Positions 117-6,067 are shown, counted from the stretch's first letter. The stretch: DNA of 64,000 bases from Clostridiales bacterium (GCA_004555155.1 SFJH01000004.1:28586-92585), one strand, 5' to 3'. The notes: a model not told the origin generated them from the sequence alone. Numbers and translations are program-made.

Positions 117-1352
117 TCAGTTGGCCGCGCCGGGCGTGGGCTCCGCAGTGGACCACGCGCCGTCCGCGCCCTTGCTCCAGGACGTGTCCGGCTTCATCAG
201 GTCAAAGTCCACGCGGTCGGCCACCTGTCCCTTCGCGTCGGACAGCAGGACGGATTCGCCCTCGGTGCTCAGGCTGAAGCTGGCGTGGGGGTGATCCGCG
301 TCCCGGCGGTTCAGACCGGAGGCGTACACGATGCGGTACTCGTCCGCCTGAAGGACGAAGCCCTCGGGCAGCCGCCACTTGGTGGGCTGGCCCACGGCGT
401 CGGACACGAACCAGCCGCTGAGGTCGATCGCCGCGCCGGTGGCGTTGTGCAGCTCGAAGTAATCGTGGAACTCGCCGTTCTCATCCGGCGCGTACCGGGA
501 GTTCGAGGACACGATTTCGGTGATCTCCACGCCGGCGTCGGTGCGCGGCTGATGCAGCGCGGTGTAGCTCTCGGCGGTGTTGGCCATGCCGGGCGTGGCC
601 ATGCTGCTGACCGACCAGGCGGCCTGATCCTGGCGCACATAGGCCATGTCGGCGGTCATCGCCGGGAAGTTCACCGAATCCACCGCCGTTCCCGACGGAT
701 TGAACAGCATCAGCGTGCCGCCCTGAGACGACAGCCGGAAGGGCGCGTGATAGGCGCGGCCGGTCTCCTGCTGAAGCGTGCTGTCCGCGTAGACGATGGC
801 GCACTCGCCGGGCTGCAGCGTGTGATCCGGGAAGGTGAACACATTGGAGGCGCGCTCATTCTTGCCCAGCGTATAGCCGGACAGATTGACGGCGCGGTCG
901 CTCACGTTGGCCACCTCGATCCAGTCCGACGTCAGGCCGTTGTCGTCCACGGCGGTGCTGTCGTTGCTGCTCATCAGTTCGTTGATGCGGATGGGGCCGC
1001 TGCCGTGAATCTCGGACACGGTAGAGGACGCTGCCACCGCGCCCTTGTCCGGGTTCACGGAGAGCCCGTTGGGCCACAGCAGATGCGCCGCCACGCCCAG
1101 CGCCAGCACCGCGATGGAAATGCCCACCAGCCGACCGAAGTCATAGGGCAGCCGCACGGAACGCCGGGGCCGGTACTGCGGCGCGGCGGGCCGAACCGGC
1201 TGCGCGGGGCGCGCGGTTCCCGACGGCGCGGCGGGACGGTTCTGTCCGGCAGGCGCGCCCGCTGGAGCAACCCGGCGTACCGGCACGGCGGGGCGCTGCT
1301 CGGAAGCCGGACGGCTTCCGCCCGGTCTGACCGGGCGCTTGTATTGCGACAC
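117..1352 (-). CDS. membrane-anchored protein with two lamin-tail-like (LTD) domains
   Basis: 411-aa ORF with a GTG start at 1352 and AGGAGGG about 6 nt upstream. It has an Arg/Pro-rich N-terminal ~75 aa and one TM (LVGISIAVLALGVAAHLLW). Two modules carry the LTD signature (IRINELMSSN..DWIEVANVSDRAVNLSGYTL and VEITEIVSSN..HDYFELHNATGAAIDLSGWFV). Confidence 0.8.
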   Translation of the reverse strand: MSQYKRPVRPGGSRPASEQRPAVPVRRVAPAGAPAGQNRPAAPSGTARPAQPVRPAAPQYRPRRSVRLPYDFGRLVGISIAVLALGVAAHLLWPNGLSVNPDKGAVAASSTVSEIHGSGPIRINELMSSNDSTAVDDNGLTSDWIEVANVSDRAVNLSGYTLGKNERASNVFTFPDHTLQPGECAIVYADSTLQQETGRAYHAPFRLSSQGGTLMLFNPSGTAVDSVNFPAMTADMAYVRQDQAAWSVSSMATPGMANTAESYTALHQPRTDAGVEITEIVSSNSRYAPDENGEFHDYFELHNATGAAIDLSGWFVSDAVGQPTKWRLPEGFVLQADEYRIVYASGLNRRDADHPHASFSLSTEGESVLLSDAKGQVADRVDFDLMKPDTSWSKGADGAWSTAEPTPGAAN

Positions 1353-1406
1353 GGGATTCCCTCCTTATTCCCGCGCCCAGCGCGGGATGATCCTTTGGAA
1401 TGGAGC

Positions 1407-2066
1407 TTATGCGGCCTCGCCCTGATAGGACACCAGCGTGGCGTCCTGCACGCCGCGGATGGAGTGAATCTTGTTCAGCACGGCCTCGGGCTTGTCCAGG
1501 CGCACCTCATAGGTCATCTCGATGCCAGCGCTGGAGACATTCTTGGACTTGAGCTTCTGGATGCGGATGCTGCCGACGATCTGGCTGACGGGGCGCTCGG
1601 CCTCCTCGGTCATGCGCACCACCAGCAGATAGCTGTTGACGCCCTTGGCCTGGATGTTCACCAGCAGGGTCAGCAGCAGCGCGATGAACACCACGGAGAC
1701 GGCGGTGAGCAGATACTGGCCCGCGCCCAGCAGGATGCCGGTGGTCAGCGCCCAGAACATGTAGGCCGTGTCCAGCGGATCCTTCACCGCGGTGCGGAAG
1801 CGCACGATGGACAGCGCGCCCACCATGCCCATGGACAGCGCGATGGAATTGCGGATGCACAGCACCACGGGGGTGGTGATCAGCGTCATCATGATCAGCG
1901 TCATGGCGAAGTTGCTGGAATACATCACGCCGCGATAGTTGCGGCGATAGACCCACGCGATGCCGTAGCCCAGCACTACGGCCAGCAGCATGGACACGAT
2001 AATGGTCAGAATCGAGGAGACGCCCAGCGTCATGGAGCTCGTCAGATCGGCAGTCAGGTTGTTCAT
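1407..2066 (-). CDS. DUF4956 family integral membrane protein
   Basis: Track ORF is 1407..2114. I prefer the ATG at 2066 (MNNLTADL), which follows GGAGGAGG. It has several TM segments and the motif GALSIVRFRTAVKDPLDTAYMFWAL that I recognise from DUF4956 proteins, plus a soluble C-terminal ~70 aa. Confidence 0.75.
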   Translation of the reverse strand: MNNLTADLTSSMTLGVSSILTIIVSMLLAVVLGYGIAWVYRRNYRGVMYSSNFAMTLIMMTLITTPVVLCIRNSIALSMGMVGALSIVRFRTAVKDPLDTAYMFWALTTGILLGAGQYLLTAVSVVFIALLLTLLVNIQAKGVNSYLLVVRMTEEAERPVSQIVGSIRIQKLKSKNVSSAGIEMTYEVRLDKPEAVLNKIHSIRGVQDATLVSYQGEAA

Positions 2067-2124
2067 CGGTATTTCCTCCTCCATCATTTTCACTTCCGCA
2101 TTGCGGGAAGTCATGCACGTCAGA

Positions 2125-2847
2125 TCAGTCGAAGCCGCCGCCGCCCAGCGGCTCGAAGCGGCGGCAGAGCACGTATTTCGAAACGGCGCTGCGCTCCGCG
2201 CGGGTTCCCGCCAGCAGCTTTTGGATGTGGTCGGGCAGGTAGTTGTCGTATTTGACCTCGAGAATTTCCAGCTTCTCGTCCAGCGGACTGATCACGGGGA
2301 TGTCCGCGTTGAACAGATCCGTGCTGTGCAGTCCCGAGCGCAGCCTGAGGTCGAAGGTGATGCGCACGTTCTCCGCCGGATGCAGATAGGCCTCGCGCTG
2401 GTAGTCCACGATCACGCTGGGCCGCAGCAGCTTCGTGCGCATCTGCACGAACATGTCCTGCAAAAGCGGATTGTTGGAGCGGTACAATCCCCTCGGGTCG
2501 CCGGAGATGATCTGCTCGCAGAGCCTGCGGGTGATCTGCACGGAGGATTTCTGGATCAGATCGCCCAGCTTGCGCTTGCGCTCCAGGAAGATCTCCGCGT
2601 CGGAGTAGCGGTAGATGCGGATGCGGTACTTGTCGCGGTGCATCACGCCGCCCACCTTGTCGAAGTAGGCGCTGTCCTCGATGTCGTCGAAGTACAGCGA
2701 CCGGATGGCGTAGGGGCGGCCGCCGCGGCAGTGGGAATCCAGCTCCATGCCCCTTCTGAGCTGAATCCGCAGCGCTTCAACCTCGGCGGGATGAATGAAG
2801 TATTTCAGCTCGTGCCGCGCGGGCAGTTGAGCTCTCTTCTGCTGCAA
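2125..2847 (-). CDS. VTC-domain (CYTH-like polyphosphate polymerase domain) protein
   Basis: Track ORF is 2125..2904. I prefer the TTG at 2847, which follows AAGGGGGA and lies 17 nt after the CotH stop. The signature is RHELKYFI..YAIRSLYFDD..DKYRIRIYRY..IFLERKRK, typical of bacterial VTC-domain proteins. No TM segment. Confidence 0.8.
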   Translation of the reverse strand: MQQKRAQLPARHELKYFIHPAEVEALRIQLRRGMELDSHCRGGRPYAIRSLYFDDIEDSAYFDKVGGVMHRDKYRIRIYRYSDAEIFLERKRKLGDLIQKSSVQITRRLCEQIISGDPRGLYRSNNPLLQDMFVQMRTKLLRPSVIVDYQREAYLHPAENVRITFDLRLRSGLHSTDLFNADIPVISPLDEKLEILEVKYDNYLPDHIQKLLAGTRAERSAVSKYVLCRRFEPLGGGGFD

Positions 2848-2863
2848 GTTCTTTCCCCCTTCT

Positions 2864-5800
2864 CTACGCGCCGTAGTTCTGAGCGGCTTCCAGCGCGTCG
2901 CCAAAGTAATGATACATCTCGTCCGTGGTCAGGTTCAGGTGGTCCGTATTGCTGAAGTACTTCAGCAGCTTCATCGGGCGCTCCTCCGCGTAGTTGATCA
3001 GGAAGGCCAGCTCCTTTTCATACTTGCTCTCGGAGGTGTTCCAGCGCGCCAGCTGATCGGGCAGCAGCGGCTCGAGGATCTCGTACCGCTCGCGGATCAT
3101 GCGCACCACGTTTTCGCTGGTGAACGTGGTGGCCATCTGTTCGCCCATGTAGGTCAGGAACTCGTCGCGGAAGCGGGGGTTCTTCATGCAGGCGATGAAC
3201 AGCGTGTTGTCCGTGCGGGAATTGGCGCCCATGCCGCCGGGCGTCAGCCAGCGGTTGATGGAATCGGTGTCCGTGGTGAACGCCCAGTCGAAGTCGAACA
3301 GGATCCAGCGCCACTTGCCGTCGGCGTTGGCGTTTCGGTATCGCTTGACGTTGAGCGTGTCGGTGTTGCCGGTGAAGATCTCCACGGCCATGTATTCGAT
3401 GAAATTCCGGATGTCGATGGCCTTGTCCAGGTTTTCATAGAAAGCGTCCGCAGTGGGATCCGCCTTCTTGACCGCTGCCAGCAGCTCGGCGAAGGTGTCA
3501 TTGGAGCCCTGCATAGTGTTGGAGTTGGCCTTCACCAGGTCGATGTCGTCCTCGTCGCCCTCCCAGCCCTCGAACTGGCAGATCGACTCGGGATTGATGC
3601 GCTCGCGGAGATTGTACTGGCCCCAGTACTGGCCGTCCAGATACAGCACGCAGATCTCCGTCTCCTGGTACATCACCGACGATTCCGCCGCCAGCGCGGT
3701 GAGAATGGAATCGCGCATGCGGGTCTTGCCGGTGTCCTGGCCGGAGGAGCGCAGGATGAACGACTGGTACTCGGTGTAATCCCGGTTGGAGAACAGCGCG
3801 ATGGGGAAGCGGTTGGAGCCGTACTGGGTGCGGGCGATGACCTTGAAGGCCTGCTGGGACTCCGCGCGGCTGTACTGGCCGTGCAGCTTGATGCCGCAGC
3901 CCTGGCTGAGCAGCTCGCTGCCGTCCCCGCCGTAGATCTCCACGTGGGCTTCGCGCTCCCAGTCCTGCCAGAAATTCGCGCCGGTGTAGGGGTGCTTCTC
4001 GGAGGCGTTCGGGCCCTTGACCATGATGCCCGTCTCCTGACTGGTCAGGTTCACGGGATCGGACACGAGCGAAACGACGTAGACCCCGTCGCCGTTGTTG
4101 ACGTCGTAGAGATAGCTCTGGGTGTCCATGAAGGATTCCAGCCAGCCGTCCGCGTACACGCGGGTGCGCAGGATGGTGGTGCCCGAAATCTGGATCGGGC
4201 CGGTGTACAGCGCGTCCGATTCATCGGGATCGGAGGAATCCAGCGTGTAGTAGATGCGCGCGCCGGGGACGTCGCTGTTCAGGGAGACCGTCAGCGTCTC
4301 GCCGCTTTCAAACATGCCGCCGCGCACCGAATAGCCGGGCGCGGGCGCCTTGCCCAGATAGGCCTGGCTGTCGTTGCGGGCCATCGGCGTGGCCAGCGTG
4401 AAGTAGCGCAGGCCGTCCGCGCCGTCCGCGCGGCCGTAGGTCACGTCCTCGTACTGCTGCGGCACATAGACGCGATCGACGATCGTGCCGTCGGGCGTGC
4501 TCAGCGTGGCGGAATAGCCGCCGCTGGCGGACAGACTGAAGCTGGTGAACAGCTTGCCGTTTTCCGCCCTGTCCGAGCCGTCGCAGAACACCGCCGTATA
4601 CTGACCGGGCTGAAGCACGGTTCCCTCGGGGAACTGCCACTTGCGCGGGCGCGCCGCGTTGTCGGAGAGTCCCCAGCCGGACAGATCGACGGGATTGGCG
4701 CCGGCGTTGTACAATTCAATCCAGTCCGGAGTGCTGCCGGAGACGGCCGCGGCGATCTCATTGATGATCACGCCGGAGTCATTGGCCGTGCGGATGCTTT
4801 CACCGGCGGACAGCGCGTTCTGCGCGGTGTTGGCCAGCCCGGGCGTAGGCGCGAGGGCCGTCGTCCAGCCGTCGCCGGTCAGCGAATACGCCTGATCGGT
4901 CTCCAGAGCCGGAACCTCGGCCGTGGAGGCGGTCTGTCCGTCGCTGCGGGTCAGGATCACCGTGGTCGCGTCGCTGCTCAGCCGGAAGCTGCTGTGCAGA
5001 TGTCCGGACACGCTGCGGTCGTAGCCGGAGCAGTGGACGATCAGGCTGCCGCCGGCGGGCAAGGAGACCTCCGGGAACTGCCACAGCGCCGTGTTGGCCG
5101 CATCGTCGCTCAGATACCAGCCGGTCAGGCTGACGTCCGCGCCGGAGACGTTGGTCAGCTCCACATAGTCGAAAAACTCGCCGTTTTCATCCGGCGCATA
5201 GGTGGCGTTGCGGGTCATGACCTCGCTGATGATCACGCCGCTGTCCACCGCGGTCAGATCGACGCTGCTGGGGAGGGCGGCGGCCGCGATGCGGTTGGCC
5301 TCTCCCGGCGTGGCGGAGAAGCTGGTCTGCCAGAGGCCGCTTTCGTCGCGGCAGTAGACCTGATCCTTCTCCAGCGAGGGCGTTTGAACGATGTCGGCCG
5401 CCTGCCCCGCGGCATTCATCAGCGTCAGCGTCTCGCCGGAGGCCGCCAGCCGGAACGGGAGATGCACGTCCCCGTCCGCCGGGCCGTCGCCGCCGTCGGC
5501 GTAGACCACGATGCGTCCGCCCGCGGGGAGCACTGCGGTGGAAAAGCAGTACATCTGGCCCGGATCGTTGCCGGCCATGATCGCATAGCCCGACAGCGTC
5601 ACGTCCTTCGACGACGTGTTTTCCAGTTCAATCCAGTCCGGCAGCGTTCCGTCGGACCGCACCAGCGCCGAAGCGTTGGAGGTCATGATTTCGCTGAAGC
5701 GGATCGGACTCTCCGCCGTGGCTTCGGCGACCGGGCCGGCGCTCGCAGCGCCGCCGGTGCTCTGCTCCGGGAGAATCGACAGCAGCACGACCAAAACCAG

Positions 5801-5878
5801 AACTACCGCGAGCAGTCCCAGACCGGTCGCGTTCTTCACATTTCCTGCCGTATGCGGCTTTCTCTTTTTTTTCGTCAC
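2864..5878 (-). CDS. TM-anchored multidomain protein: three LTD modules, an Ig-like module and a CotH kinase-family domain
   Basis: 1004 aa. Lys-rich N-terminus plus TM (GLGLLAVVLVLVVLLSILP). Three LTD repeats (IRFSEIMTSN..DWIELENTS; VIISEVMTRN..FDYVELTNVSGADVSLTGWYL; VIINEIAAA..DWIELYNAGANPVDLSGWGL). A chitobiase/hexosaminidase-C-like segment (ARIYYTLDSSDP..LYTGPIQISG). CotH-like C-terminal half (YLDGQYWGQYNLRERI, NFIEYMAVEIFTGNTD, KWRWILFDFDWAF). Confidence 0.85.
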   Translation of the reverse strand: MTKKKRKPHTAGNVKNATGLGLLAVVLVLVVLLSILPEQSTGGAASAGPVAEATAESPIRFSEIMTSNASALVRSDGTLPDWIELENTSSKDVTLSGYAIMAGNDPGQMYCFSTAVLPAGGRIVVYADGGDGPADGDVHLPFRLAASGETLTLMNAAGQAADIVQTPSLEKDQVYCRDESGLWQTSFSATPGEANRIAAAALPSSVDLTAVDSGVIISEVMTRNATYAPDENGEFFDYVELTNVSGADVSLTGWYLSDDAANTALWQFPEVSLPAGGSLIVHCSGYDRSVSGHLHSSFRLSSDATTVILTRSDGQTASTAEVPALETDQAYSLTGDGWTTALAPTPGLANTAQNALSAGESIRTANDSGVIINEIAAAVSGSTPDWIELYNAGANPVDLSGWGLSDNAARPRKWQFPEGTVLQPGQYTAVFCDGSDRAENGKLFTSFSLSASGGYSATLSTPDGTIVDRVYVPQQYEDVTYGRADGADGLRYFTLATPMARNDSQAYLGKAPAPGYSVRGGMFESGETLTVSLNSDVPGARIYYTLDSSDPDESDALYTGPIQISGTTILRTRVYADGWLESFMDTQSYLYDVNNGDGVYVVSLVSDPVNLTSQETGIMVKGPNASEKHPYTGANFWQDWEREAHVEIYGGDGSELLSQGCGIKLHGQYSRAESQQAFKVIARTQYGSNRFPIALFSNRDYTEYQSFILRSSGQDTGKTRMRDSILTALAAESSVMYQETEICVLYLDGQYWGQYNLRERINPESICQFEGWEGDEDDIDLVKANSNTMQGSNDTFAELLAAVKKADPTADAFYENLDKAIDIRNFIEYMAVEIFTGNTDTLNVKRYRNANADGKWRWILFDFDWAFTTDTDSINRWLTPGGMGANSRTDNTLFIACMKNPRFRDEFLTYMGEQMATTFTSENVVRMIRERYEILEPLLPDQLARWNTSESKYEKELAFLINYAEERPMKLLKYFSNTDHLNLTTDEMYHYFGDALEAAQNYGA

Positions 5879-6067
5879 TCTGTGCCTCCATTCAGGTACT
5901 GCTTACCATCATGATTGCATATAGTAATATAATACACCCCAAGTCGCGGCGAATGTAGTCAATTTTCCAATATCTATCCGAATATTTTGTAAAATCATGG
6001 CGATCGGAAGCGAAAAAGCAAGCGCTGGCTGTGTGAAAATGCCGGCGCTTTTCGGAATTGAAGGGGA

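Follow-up and report, generated by a model that had tools for sequence, protein, structure and literature searches.

How could a phosphotransfer enzyme on the outside of a cell be powered? The question is raised by a four-gene operon at positions 117-5878 (minus strand) of a 64,000-nucleotide stretch of DNA from a Clostridiales bacterium (GCA_004555155.1 SFJH01000004.1:28586-92585), called the window here. The operon encodes a protein with the polyphosphate (polyP)-polymerase domain of the vacuolar transporter chaperone (VTC) family, a membrane protein of family DUF4956 and a CotH kinase-family domain predicted to face outward, and it is the near-constant pairing of VTC and DUF4956 with an outward-facing kinase that prompts the question. 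Comparative analysis shows that VTC and DUF4956 form an obligate pair, with conservation extending to two phyla or more, and that their usual third partner is, by its predicted domains, an extracytoplasmic CotH protein with intact catalytic Asp residues or else a secreted glycan-binding protein. By the same comparison, the window operon is a stand-alone variant, rich in lamin-tail domains (LTDs), of a published but functionally blank module. We favour, as a tentative reading that is far from assured, a mechanism in which polyP made at the membrane would travel outward, by way of DUF4956 or alongside it, for use by the ecto-kinase. The four genes are as follows.

2864..5878, minus strand: gene i, membrane-anchored protein of 1004 amino acids with three LTDs, a CHB_HEX_C module and a CotH domain; GTG start behind GGAGG
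2125..2847, minus strand: gene ii, soluble protein of 240 amino acids with a Vtc4-type polyphosphate-polymerase (triphosphate-tunnel, TTM) domain
1407..2066, minus strand: gene iii, DUF4956 membrane protein of 219 amino acids; good ribosome-binding site; Pfam match above cut-off
117..1352, minus strand: gene iv, protein of 411 amino acids with a transmembrane (TM) anchor and two LTDs; GTG start behind AAGGAGG

The initial annotation, made from the sequence alone, described four close-packed genes on one strand with gaps of about 11-54 nt, and this layout was borne out, with gaps of 16 nt (i-ii), 10 or 58 nt (ii-iii) and 54 nt (iii-iv). Its domain calls (LTD, Ig-like, CotH, VTC and DUF4956) all hold, and all four genes pass Pfam cut-offs. 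The same operon recurs on at least 24 independent metagenome contigs and is therefore not an assembly artefact.

Linkage of VTC, DUF4956 and CotH genes

Using a 14-sequence alignment as the seed and one genome per GTDB species, a VTC scan recovered 80 loci at 48-81% identity. DUF4956 adjoined VTC in 79 of these, in either order, the exception being a contig end, and the gap between the two genes had a median of at most 29 nt; the pair is probably stoichiometric. Gene order was CotH-DUF4956-VTC in 42 loci, CotH-VTC-DUF4956 in 10 and the four-gene order of the window in 9, and 13 loci had the pair alone. A reciprocal scan, seeded with the DUF4956 motif and run on metagenomes from soil, sea and gut, found VTC in 34 of the 37 loci long enough to judge. 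CotH, scored with an iterated hidden Markov model plus a Pfam check so as to cover divergent CotH-beta-helix proteins, was present in 14 of the 16 DUF4956-seeded loci that had 4.5 kb or more of sequence to either side. Among loci of sufficient length, about 80-90% had an outward-facing CotH beside the VTC-DUF4956 pair, and synteny of the three families was strongly positive in both directions. No flanking family occurred in more than 12 of the 80 loci, and those checked were housekeeping genes; as the flanks are not conserved, selection appears to act on the module itself.

VTC proteins form a large family, with 4915 clusters at the 50% identity level. A profile search for distant VTCs returned mainly close Clostridia, and breadth came from a plasmid tblastn search and the DUF4956-seeded metagenome scan. 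Beyond gut Clostridia, the triad was found on a Pseudobutyrivibrio plasmid (Lachnospiraceae), where it lies inside a glycosyltransferase-rich locus, on a Planococcus plasmid (Bacilli) and in Nonomuraea (Actinomycetota). In two CotH-less metagenome loci and in Paenibacillus, the CotH position was occupied by a secreted Cthe_2159 beta-helix carbohydrate-binding protein; in the Paenibacillus-like clade its gene follows VTC-DUF4956 (L091 9416-11350, L092 8705-10549 and L093 8691-10400).

The gene combination had been put forward as one without known function, which still stands, but the combination itself is already published, as pel accessory genes and in NELoc-2 of C. perfringens. In the account of Whitfield et al., Gram-positive pel operons are directly adjoined by accessory genes for CotH, a polyphosphate polymerase, DUF4956 and DUF4832 (bioRxiv 10.1101/768473 = PMC7112168); the S. 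intermedius SIR_1592-1594 triad was later analysed and the combination reported as not found outside pel operons (bioRxiv 10.1101/2024.04.20.589940); and NELoc-2 carries VTC-domain proteins and a CotH kinase (PMC11677781). The pel accessory triad resembles the window in having the same three families contiguous on one strand, a secreted or surface-exposed CotH, a VTC protein that keeps its catalytic residues and a DUF4956 protein with TM and ACT-like domains. The window differs in that no pelDEA(DA)FG operon is contiguous with the triad or lies within 10 kb, here or in the 80 related species, in that its CotH protein carries three LTDs and CHB_HEX_C rather than FN3, and in having an additional LTD paralogue and no DUF4832 hydrolase. 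The operon is flanked upstream by URO-D-family and aminotransferase genes and downstream by a convergent open reading frame (ORF) of 156 amino acids, polA and coaE, with neither pel nor other exopolysaccharide genes within 10 kb; no exopolysaccharide neighbour was conserved across the 80 species. A pel-dependent function was rejected for the window operon. NELoc-2, which is plasmid- or island-borne, differs further in its HEAT-repeat, glycosyltransferase, deacetylase and sigma/anti-sigma genes, none of which is present here.

Predicted activities and topology of the encoded proteins

Gene ii starts at TTG 2847 behind the purine-rich ribosome-binding site AAGGGGGAAA (a mechanically called ORF from 2904 overlaps gene i), and its 240-residue product is identical to database protein P0001. 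Its single Pfam domain is VTC (PF09359; 3.2e-38, 132 bits versus a cut-off of 23), Pfam CYTH is absent from its listed matches, and hydropathy revealed no TM segment. A phmmer alignment to yeast Vtc4 (3g3q) placed K15, R75, R77 and K91 on K200, R264, R266 and K281, and the correspondence extends to Y149, R151, R162, E197 and K224 for Vtc4 Y359, R361, R373, E426 and K458. These nine residues and K199 were invariant in 78 diverse homologues, and the same columns held without change in homologues from Lachnospiraceae, Planococcus, Paenibacillus and Nonomuraea with 26-29% identity, indicating that the putative polymerase active site is under strict selection.

Gene ii tunnel residues (from the alignment and invariant columns): E13, K15, R75, R77, K91, K100, Y149, R151, R162, E197, K199, S223 and K224

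An AlphaFold2 model of gene ii (predicted local distance difference test (pLDDT) 89, predicted TM-score (pTM) 0.85) supported the assignment. Foldseek ranks 1-13 were all tunnel domains of Vtc4, Vtc2, Vtc3 or Vtc5 (3g3r_B, E 2.6e-15, TM-score 0.72), and generic TTM enzymes such as ygiF appeared from rank 14, with E-values of 5e-8 or worse and TM-scores of about 0.5. The protein thus shares with the eukaryotic VTC complex (3G3Q, 8I6V, 7YTJ) the tunnel fold, all polymer- and nucleotide-contacting residues and an obligate association with a membrane protein. In the eukaryotic complex, with its Vtc1/2/3 TM channel, the Vtc4 tunnel domain is fused to SPX and to a three-helix Vtc1-type TM domain that forms the channel. 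The window protein differs in being a soluble polypeptide of its own without an SPX domain, in having Glu13 for Thr198, and in that its partner is MgtC-like rather than of the Vtc1 type. The initial annotation had proposed a split analogue of the VTC complex; the obligate pairing fits this idea, but the unrelatedness of DUF4956 to the Vtc1-type TM domain does not.

In a Rosetta-stone search, long VTC homologues (365-620 amino acids) had basic, disordered N-terminal extensions, and neither DUF4956 nor CotH was fused to them. Several homologues from other clades (P0245, P0249, P0252, P0262, P0265 and P0327) carry Lys/Arg/Pro-rich low-complexity N-terminal extensions of 90-400 residues without a Pfam domain; in the lineage of the window, polybasic tails are found instead on the CotH and LTD proteins.

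Gene iii matches Pfam DUF4956 (PF16316; 1.5e-9, 38.3 bits versus a cut-off of 30.6) and is polytopic by hydropathy. An alternative ATG at 2114 would give 235 residues, and gene callers use both the 219- and 235-residue forms.

1767..1829, minus strand: DUF4956 signature loop GMVGALSIVRFRTAVKDPLDT, residues 80-100; its basic R-F-R..K cluster is predicted to face the cytoplasm
1419..1640, minus strand: C-terminal beta-alpha-beta-beta-alpha-beta (ACT-like) domain, residues ~143-216 (AlphaFold2, pLDDT about 76-82)

Conservation of the loop, GALSIVRFRTAxKDxxD, reaches at least 95% among 85 sequences from Clostridia, Bacilli and Actinomycetota, and this motif alone recovered 468 DUF4956 relatives from metagenomes. 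Matches to the MgtC family were sub-threshold (PF02308, 18 bits versus 31.4; NCBIfam MgtC/SapB, 18.9 bits versus 214), and the top Foldseek match of the C-terminal domain was that of P. aeruginosa MgtC (7qa5, E 2.9e-4), followed by ACT domains. DUF4956 therefore resembles the MgtC/SapB/YhiD family in its predicted layout, a polytopic N-terminal domain followed by an ACT-like C-terminal domain, and differs from it in its own invariant GALSIVRFRTAxKD motif and in lying nearly always beside a VTC gene (79 of 80 and 34 of 37 loci). In B. thetaiotaomicron, DUF4956 adjoins DUF2490.

The kinase-family domain is carried by gene i, in which Pfam identified three LTDs (6.4e-52, 175 bits versus a cut-off of 34.3) and CotH (PF08757; 4.6e-45, 154.9 bits versus 23.8); the module initially called Ig-like corresponds to CHB_HEX_C_1 (2.7e-13) or Fn3_assoc (1.2e-11).

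5828..5878, minus strand: polybasic cytoplasmic tip MTKKKRKPHTAGNVKNA, residues 1-17, six Lys/Arg
5771..5827, minus strand: single TM anchor, residues 18-36 (hydropathy 2.92 over 19 residues)
4466..5713, minus strand: three lamin-tail domains, residues ~56-471 (Pfam LTD; LTD1-2 colinear with gene iv)
4133..4297, minus strand: Ig-like CHB_HEX_C_1/Fn3_assoc module, residues 528-582 (Pfam)
2972..3892, minus strand: CotH kinase-family domain, residues 663-969 (Pfam, profile-to-PDB alignment)
3359-3361, 3350-3352, 3293-3295 and 3287-3289, minus strand: CotH catalytic-region codons of D840, N843, D862 and D864, respectively
3851-3853, minus strand: codon of the atypical CotH residue Q676 (column counts)

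Single-sequence phmmer searches of the PDB with the whole CotH protein or the kinase domain alone gave no match, and B. cereus CotH (5jd9) was reached by profiles only: a profile of 46 orthologues aligned to it with E 3.8e-5, and one of 28 very diverse module-linked CotH domains with E 1.1e-38 over aligned residues 39-353. The Asp region of the B. cereus protein for catalysis and metal binding is matched by D840/N843 and D862/D864, which are invariant in 46 of 46 orthologues; in B. subtilis CotH the validated residues are catalytic D228 and metal-binding D251 (PMC7821199). The domain shares its fold, catalytic Asp/Asn and DxD with the Bacillus spore-coat Ser kinase (5JD9/5JDA), from which it differs in being TM-anchored and extracytoplasmic, with ~640 residues of LTD and Ig-like modules in front and Gln in place of the N-lobe Lys. 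Conservation of catalytic residues, which the initial annotation had named as a check, was strongly borne out for the VTC tunnel and for the CotH D..N and DxD positions. Surface display of CotH, also anticipated, is borne out as a predicted topology: the domain lies behind a TM anchor and extracellular-type modules, and in all clades examined CotH sits behind an N-terminal TM or signal segment together with LTD, CHB_HEX_C, FN3 or beta-helix modules.

The basic cytoplasmic tail of the CotH protein likewise proved to be a conserved feature of its orthologues, with a median of 8 Lys/Arg in the 23 residues before the TM helix and at least 6 in 51 of 56; in a crude background set the median was 4 and 20% had at least 6. 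Gene iv has a basic tail of its own, in front of two LTDs (PF00932; 3.6e-35, 121 bits versus 34.3).

1131-1352, minus strand: gene iv Arg/Pro-rich cytoplasmic tail, 74 residues (composition: 14 Arg and 15 Pro in an 80-residue stretch)
1074-1130, minus strand: gene iv TM helix, residues 75-93 (hydropathy)
120-1001, minus strand: gene iv LTDs (Pfam)

By BLASTP, gene iv matches gene i residues 34-350 at 38% identity (320 residues, E 2e-60). Because its ectodomain is colinear with that region, gene iv is a kinase-less duplicate, a paralogue of the gene i anchor and LTD1-2. A second LTD protein is confined to the closest relatives (9-10 of the 80 species), so that, contrary to its initial inclusion in the module, it is a lineage-specific addition rather than a core component.

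Proposed mechanism and competing explanations

In the mechanism that we favour, the VTC domain, docked on DUF4956 at the inner membrane face, would build polyP from the gamma-phosphate of a cytoplasmic nucleoside triphosphate (NTP), the ACT-like domain and the invariant RFRxAxK loop being the likely docking sites. A DUF4956 oligomer would hand the polyP chain across or into the membrane, and the CotH ectodomain, kept close by its TM helix and polybasic cytoplasmic tail, would use the exported polyP as donor or substrate in phosphorylating or decorating a polymer of the cell surface, with a glycan a likelier target than a protein. As a proposal, the mechanistic idea of the initial annotation is reasonable. 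In yeast, VTC couples polyP synthesis to translocation; here the membrane would be the plasma membrane, and export would reach the cell exterior. Use of polyP by the ecto-kinase is the most economical mechanism because such a kinase would otherwise be without a phosphoanhydride donor, extracellular kinases having, to our knowledge, no supply of ATP. A surface glycan is suggested as the target by the glycan-type modules (CHB_HEX_C, FN3, beta-helix and Cthe_2159) and by exopolysaccharide neighbourhoods, several instances of the module lying inside such loci (the Pseudobutyrivibrio plasmid, pel loci and NELoc-2). We infer every step beyond a VTC domain with an intact site, bound to a membrane partner, and the steps differ in strength. 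That VTC and DUF4956 make polyP at the membrane is probable from the sequences; that the polymer is exported is plausible, somewhat short of an even chance; and that CotH takes it as a phosphoryl donor is doubtful. The proposal in its complete form, a polyP synthase-translocase distinct from PPK1/PPK2 whose exported product serves CotH as the donor for envelope glycans or proteins where there is no ATP, is unlikely to hold.

Several observations weigh against this mechanism. The E13 position, an invariant Glu in bacterial VTCs, is Thr198 in Vtc4; the ExExK motif is typical of hydrolytic TTM enzymes, and the Glu would bring the bacterial VTCs closer to these. DUF4956 is by its model MgtC-like and unrelated to the Vtc1-type TM channel, with resemblance to MgtC confined to the C-terminal fold, and MgtC is known as a regulatory protein rather than a channel; as the partner is not of the Vtc1 type, translocation is a step that we purely infer. 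The TM region of DUF4956 was modelled at low confidence (pLDDT 50-68); only the C-terminal domain of the model is trustworthy, and the model was given no weight on the question of a pore. About 9 of the 80 species (those of the 13 pair-only loci with enough flanking sequence) have the pair with no CotH within 10 kb, which suggests that the VTC-DUF4956 core has a function independent of CotH. In the window itself, Q676 stands where a near-invariant N-lobe Lys is expected (Lys in 44 of 46 orthologues and in distant CotH clades). The position aligns with K56 of B. cereus CotH (EKKSY; motif G-x-S-S-R...K-K-S-Y), and Gln is limited to the window copy and its nearest relative, L008; because of this replacement the window CotH may be a weakened, re-tuned or atypical kinase. 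Both ectodomains are strongly acidic (66 Lys/Arg versus 131 Asp/Glu in gene i, 19 versus 42 in gene iv). We know of no kinase with a protein-kinase-like fold that uses polyP, and the literature searched yielded no experiment on any bacterial VTC-domain protein or module-linked CotH.

The main rival is a cytoplasmic polyP store, in which DUF4956 would serve as an anchor or sensor of MgtC type and adjust synthesis to a metabolite through its ACT domain, the polybasic CotH and LTD tails would tether polyP granules or be regulated by them, and CotH would work outside on a donor of its own, such as environmental ATP, and be merely co-regulated. Such a store, which we rate as somewhat unlikely, draws on the sub-threshold MgtC match and the MgtC C-terminal domain as top structural match, on ACT domains being classic ligand sensors, on the existence of pairs without CotH, and on the cytoplasmic side of the polybasic tails, together with the long basic disordered extensions of many VTC homologues; the S. 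intermedius preprint (10.1101/2024.04.20.589940) likewise assumed cytoplasmic polyP. It leaves unexplained why the third gene nearly always encodes an extracytoplasmic enzyme or glycan-binding protein, and why a soluble enzyme has an obligate polytopic membrane partner (79 of 80 and 34 of 37 loci). If polyP is exported, it could also be the product in itself, an anionic surface or matrix polymer acting, for example, as a counter-ion for cationic exopolysaccharides (Pel) or as a cation chelator, with the CotH and LTD proteins only anchoring, capping or trimming it and making no use of it as donor. Recurrence of the triad beside exopolysaccharide loci, replacement of CotH by the non-enzymatic carbohydrate-binding Cthe_2159 protein, the kinase-less LTD paralogue and the K676Q change in the window CotH are in keeping with this explanation. 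Invariance of the catalytic Asp, Asn and DxD across 46 orthologues implies retained catalysis, however, the Christensenellales-type loci have no adjacent exopolysaccharide locus, and the acidic ectodomains would be poor polyP binders; LTDs as electrostatic polyP binders were rejected because both ectodomains are acidic. We consider it improbable.

A further explanation would remove polyP altogether, casting the VTC protein as a hydrolase or cyclase of the triphosphate-tunnel type with a different substrate (triphosphate, an NTP or thiamine triphosphate) and DUF4956 its sensor or effector. The invariant Glu13 restores part of the hydrolytic ExExK motif, and generic TTMs were also significant structural matches. 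Against these points, all Vtc4 polymer- and nucleotide-contacting residues are invariant, Vtc tunnel domains lead other TTMs by 7 orders of magnitude in E-value and ~0.2 in TM-score, and Pfam VTC was matched with CYTH not among the listed matches, which leaves a non-polymerase activity with a small chance of being correct. Smallest of all is the chance of a kinase system like that of the Bacillus CotH spore coat, active in sporulation, an angle raised by the initial annotation that found no support: the family name and the shared catalytic core alone favour it, whereas a TM anchor and extracellular modules precede the domain, the triad is carried by Streptococcus and Bifidobacterium, which do not sporulate, and by Actinomycetota, and no gene for a CotB/CotG-type substrate with Ser/Lys/Arg repeats was found in the operon neighbourhood. 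In Bacillus, such substrates are coat proteins on which CotH acts within the mother cell. A spore-coat role was rejected on these grounds.

The operon in its genomic setting

Alignment of the upstream regions of six related operons, together with inspection of the intergenic DNA, gave three candidate elements.

5958..5995, minus strand: conserved upstream element ATTTTACAAAATATTCGGATAGATATTGGAAAATTGAC, a candidate regulator site containing direct repeats of ATATT(C)GG at a spacing of about 11-12 nt
5928..5937, minus strand: -10-like promoter element GTGTATTATA, ~50 nt before the start of gene i
1369..1387, minus strand: perfect 8-bp GC-rich hairpin TCCCGCGC-TGG-GCGCGGGA, directly before the gene iv ribosome-binding site and not followed by a T-run

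The upstream element was conserved in the window and in L008, L010 and L015, and the core of GTGTATTATA was invariant in all six aligned relatives; a generic scan for sigma-70 consensus promoters and terminators found no full promoter and nothing above shuffled sequences. The hairpin could modulate translation of gene iv or stability of the mRNA. Elsewhere in the window, an Rfam scan gave one match only, an azaaromatic (yjdF) riboswitch aptamer (RF01764, 27362-27464, minus strand, 63.9 bits versus a gathering score of 45), and no tRNA genes were found in the 64 kb. NCBIfam yielded no informative model for the operon proteins, and a PADLOC search for anti-phage defence gave no match except a marginal one to LTD only (E 0.0012). 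The 156-residue ORF just beyond the window start (L002 12932-13402, minus strand) has no Pfam match and lies between the operon and polA in all contigs of the organism. One member of the 90%-identity protein cluster of the operon is annotated Candidatus Faecivicinus sp., a Clostridia genus.

Other versions of the module had further companions. In one clade, a protein of ~345 residues, helical, with an N-terminal TM helix and no Pfam match, always accompanies a CotH-beta-helix protein of ~920 residues (L125 2362-3396 and L130 2271-3281, with equivalents in L103, L124, L128, L131, L135, L157 and L159). In about six loci (for example, L076 10478-11812 and L058 10570-11928), the next gene downstream of the module, in the same orientation, encodes a secreted PGA_cap (CapA-like) protein. 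At L052 2033-9103, a gene for a 2357-residue surface protein with FctA/Cna_B isopeptide domains is immediately followed, on the same strand, by a DUF4956-VTC pair that lacks CotH, and in Paenibacillus an OmpR-type two-component system is divergent beside the VTC-DUF4956 pair.

The window operon corrects the published impression of a triad confined to pel operons, and as a stand-alone, four-gene, housekeeping-flanked unit it is the cleanest genetic form of the module, free of confounding pel genes. The module is abundant in gut Clostridia and is present in streptococcal biofilm loci and in a C. perfringens pathogenicity locus. Textbook accounts of polyP synthesis in bacteria rest on PPK1/PPK2 chemistry; a third route, of Vtc4 type and in every case linked to a membrane protein, would, if true, change that picture and, should exported polyP indeed serve as a donor, it would constitute a previously unknown way to energise extracellular phosphorylation.

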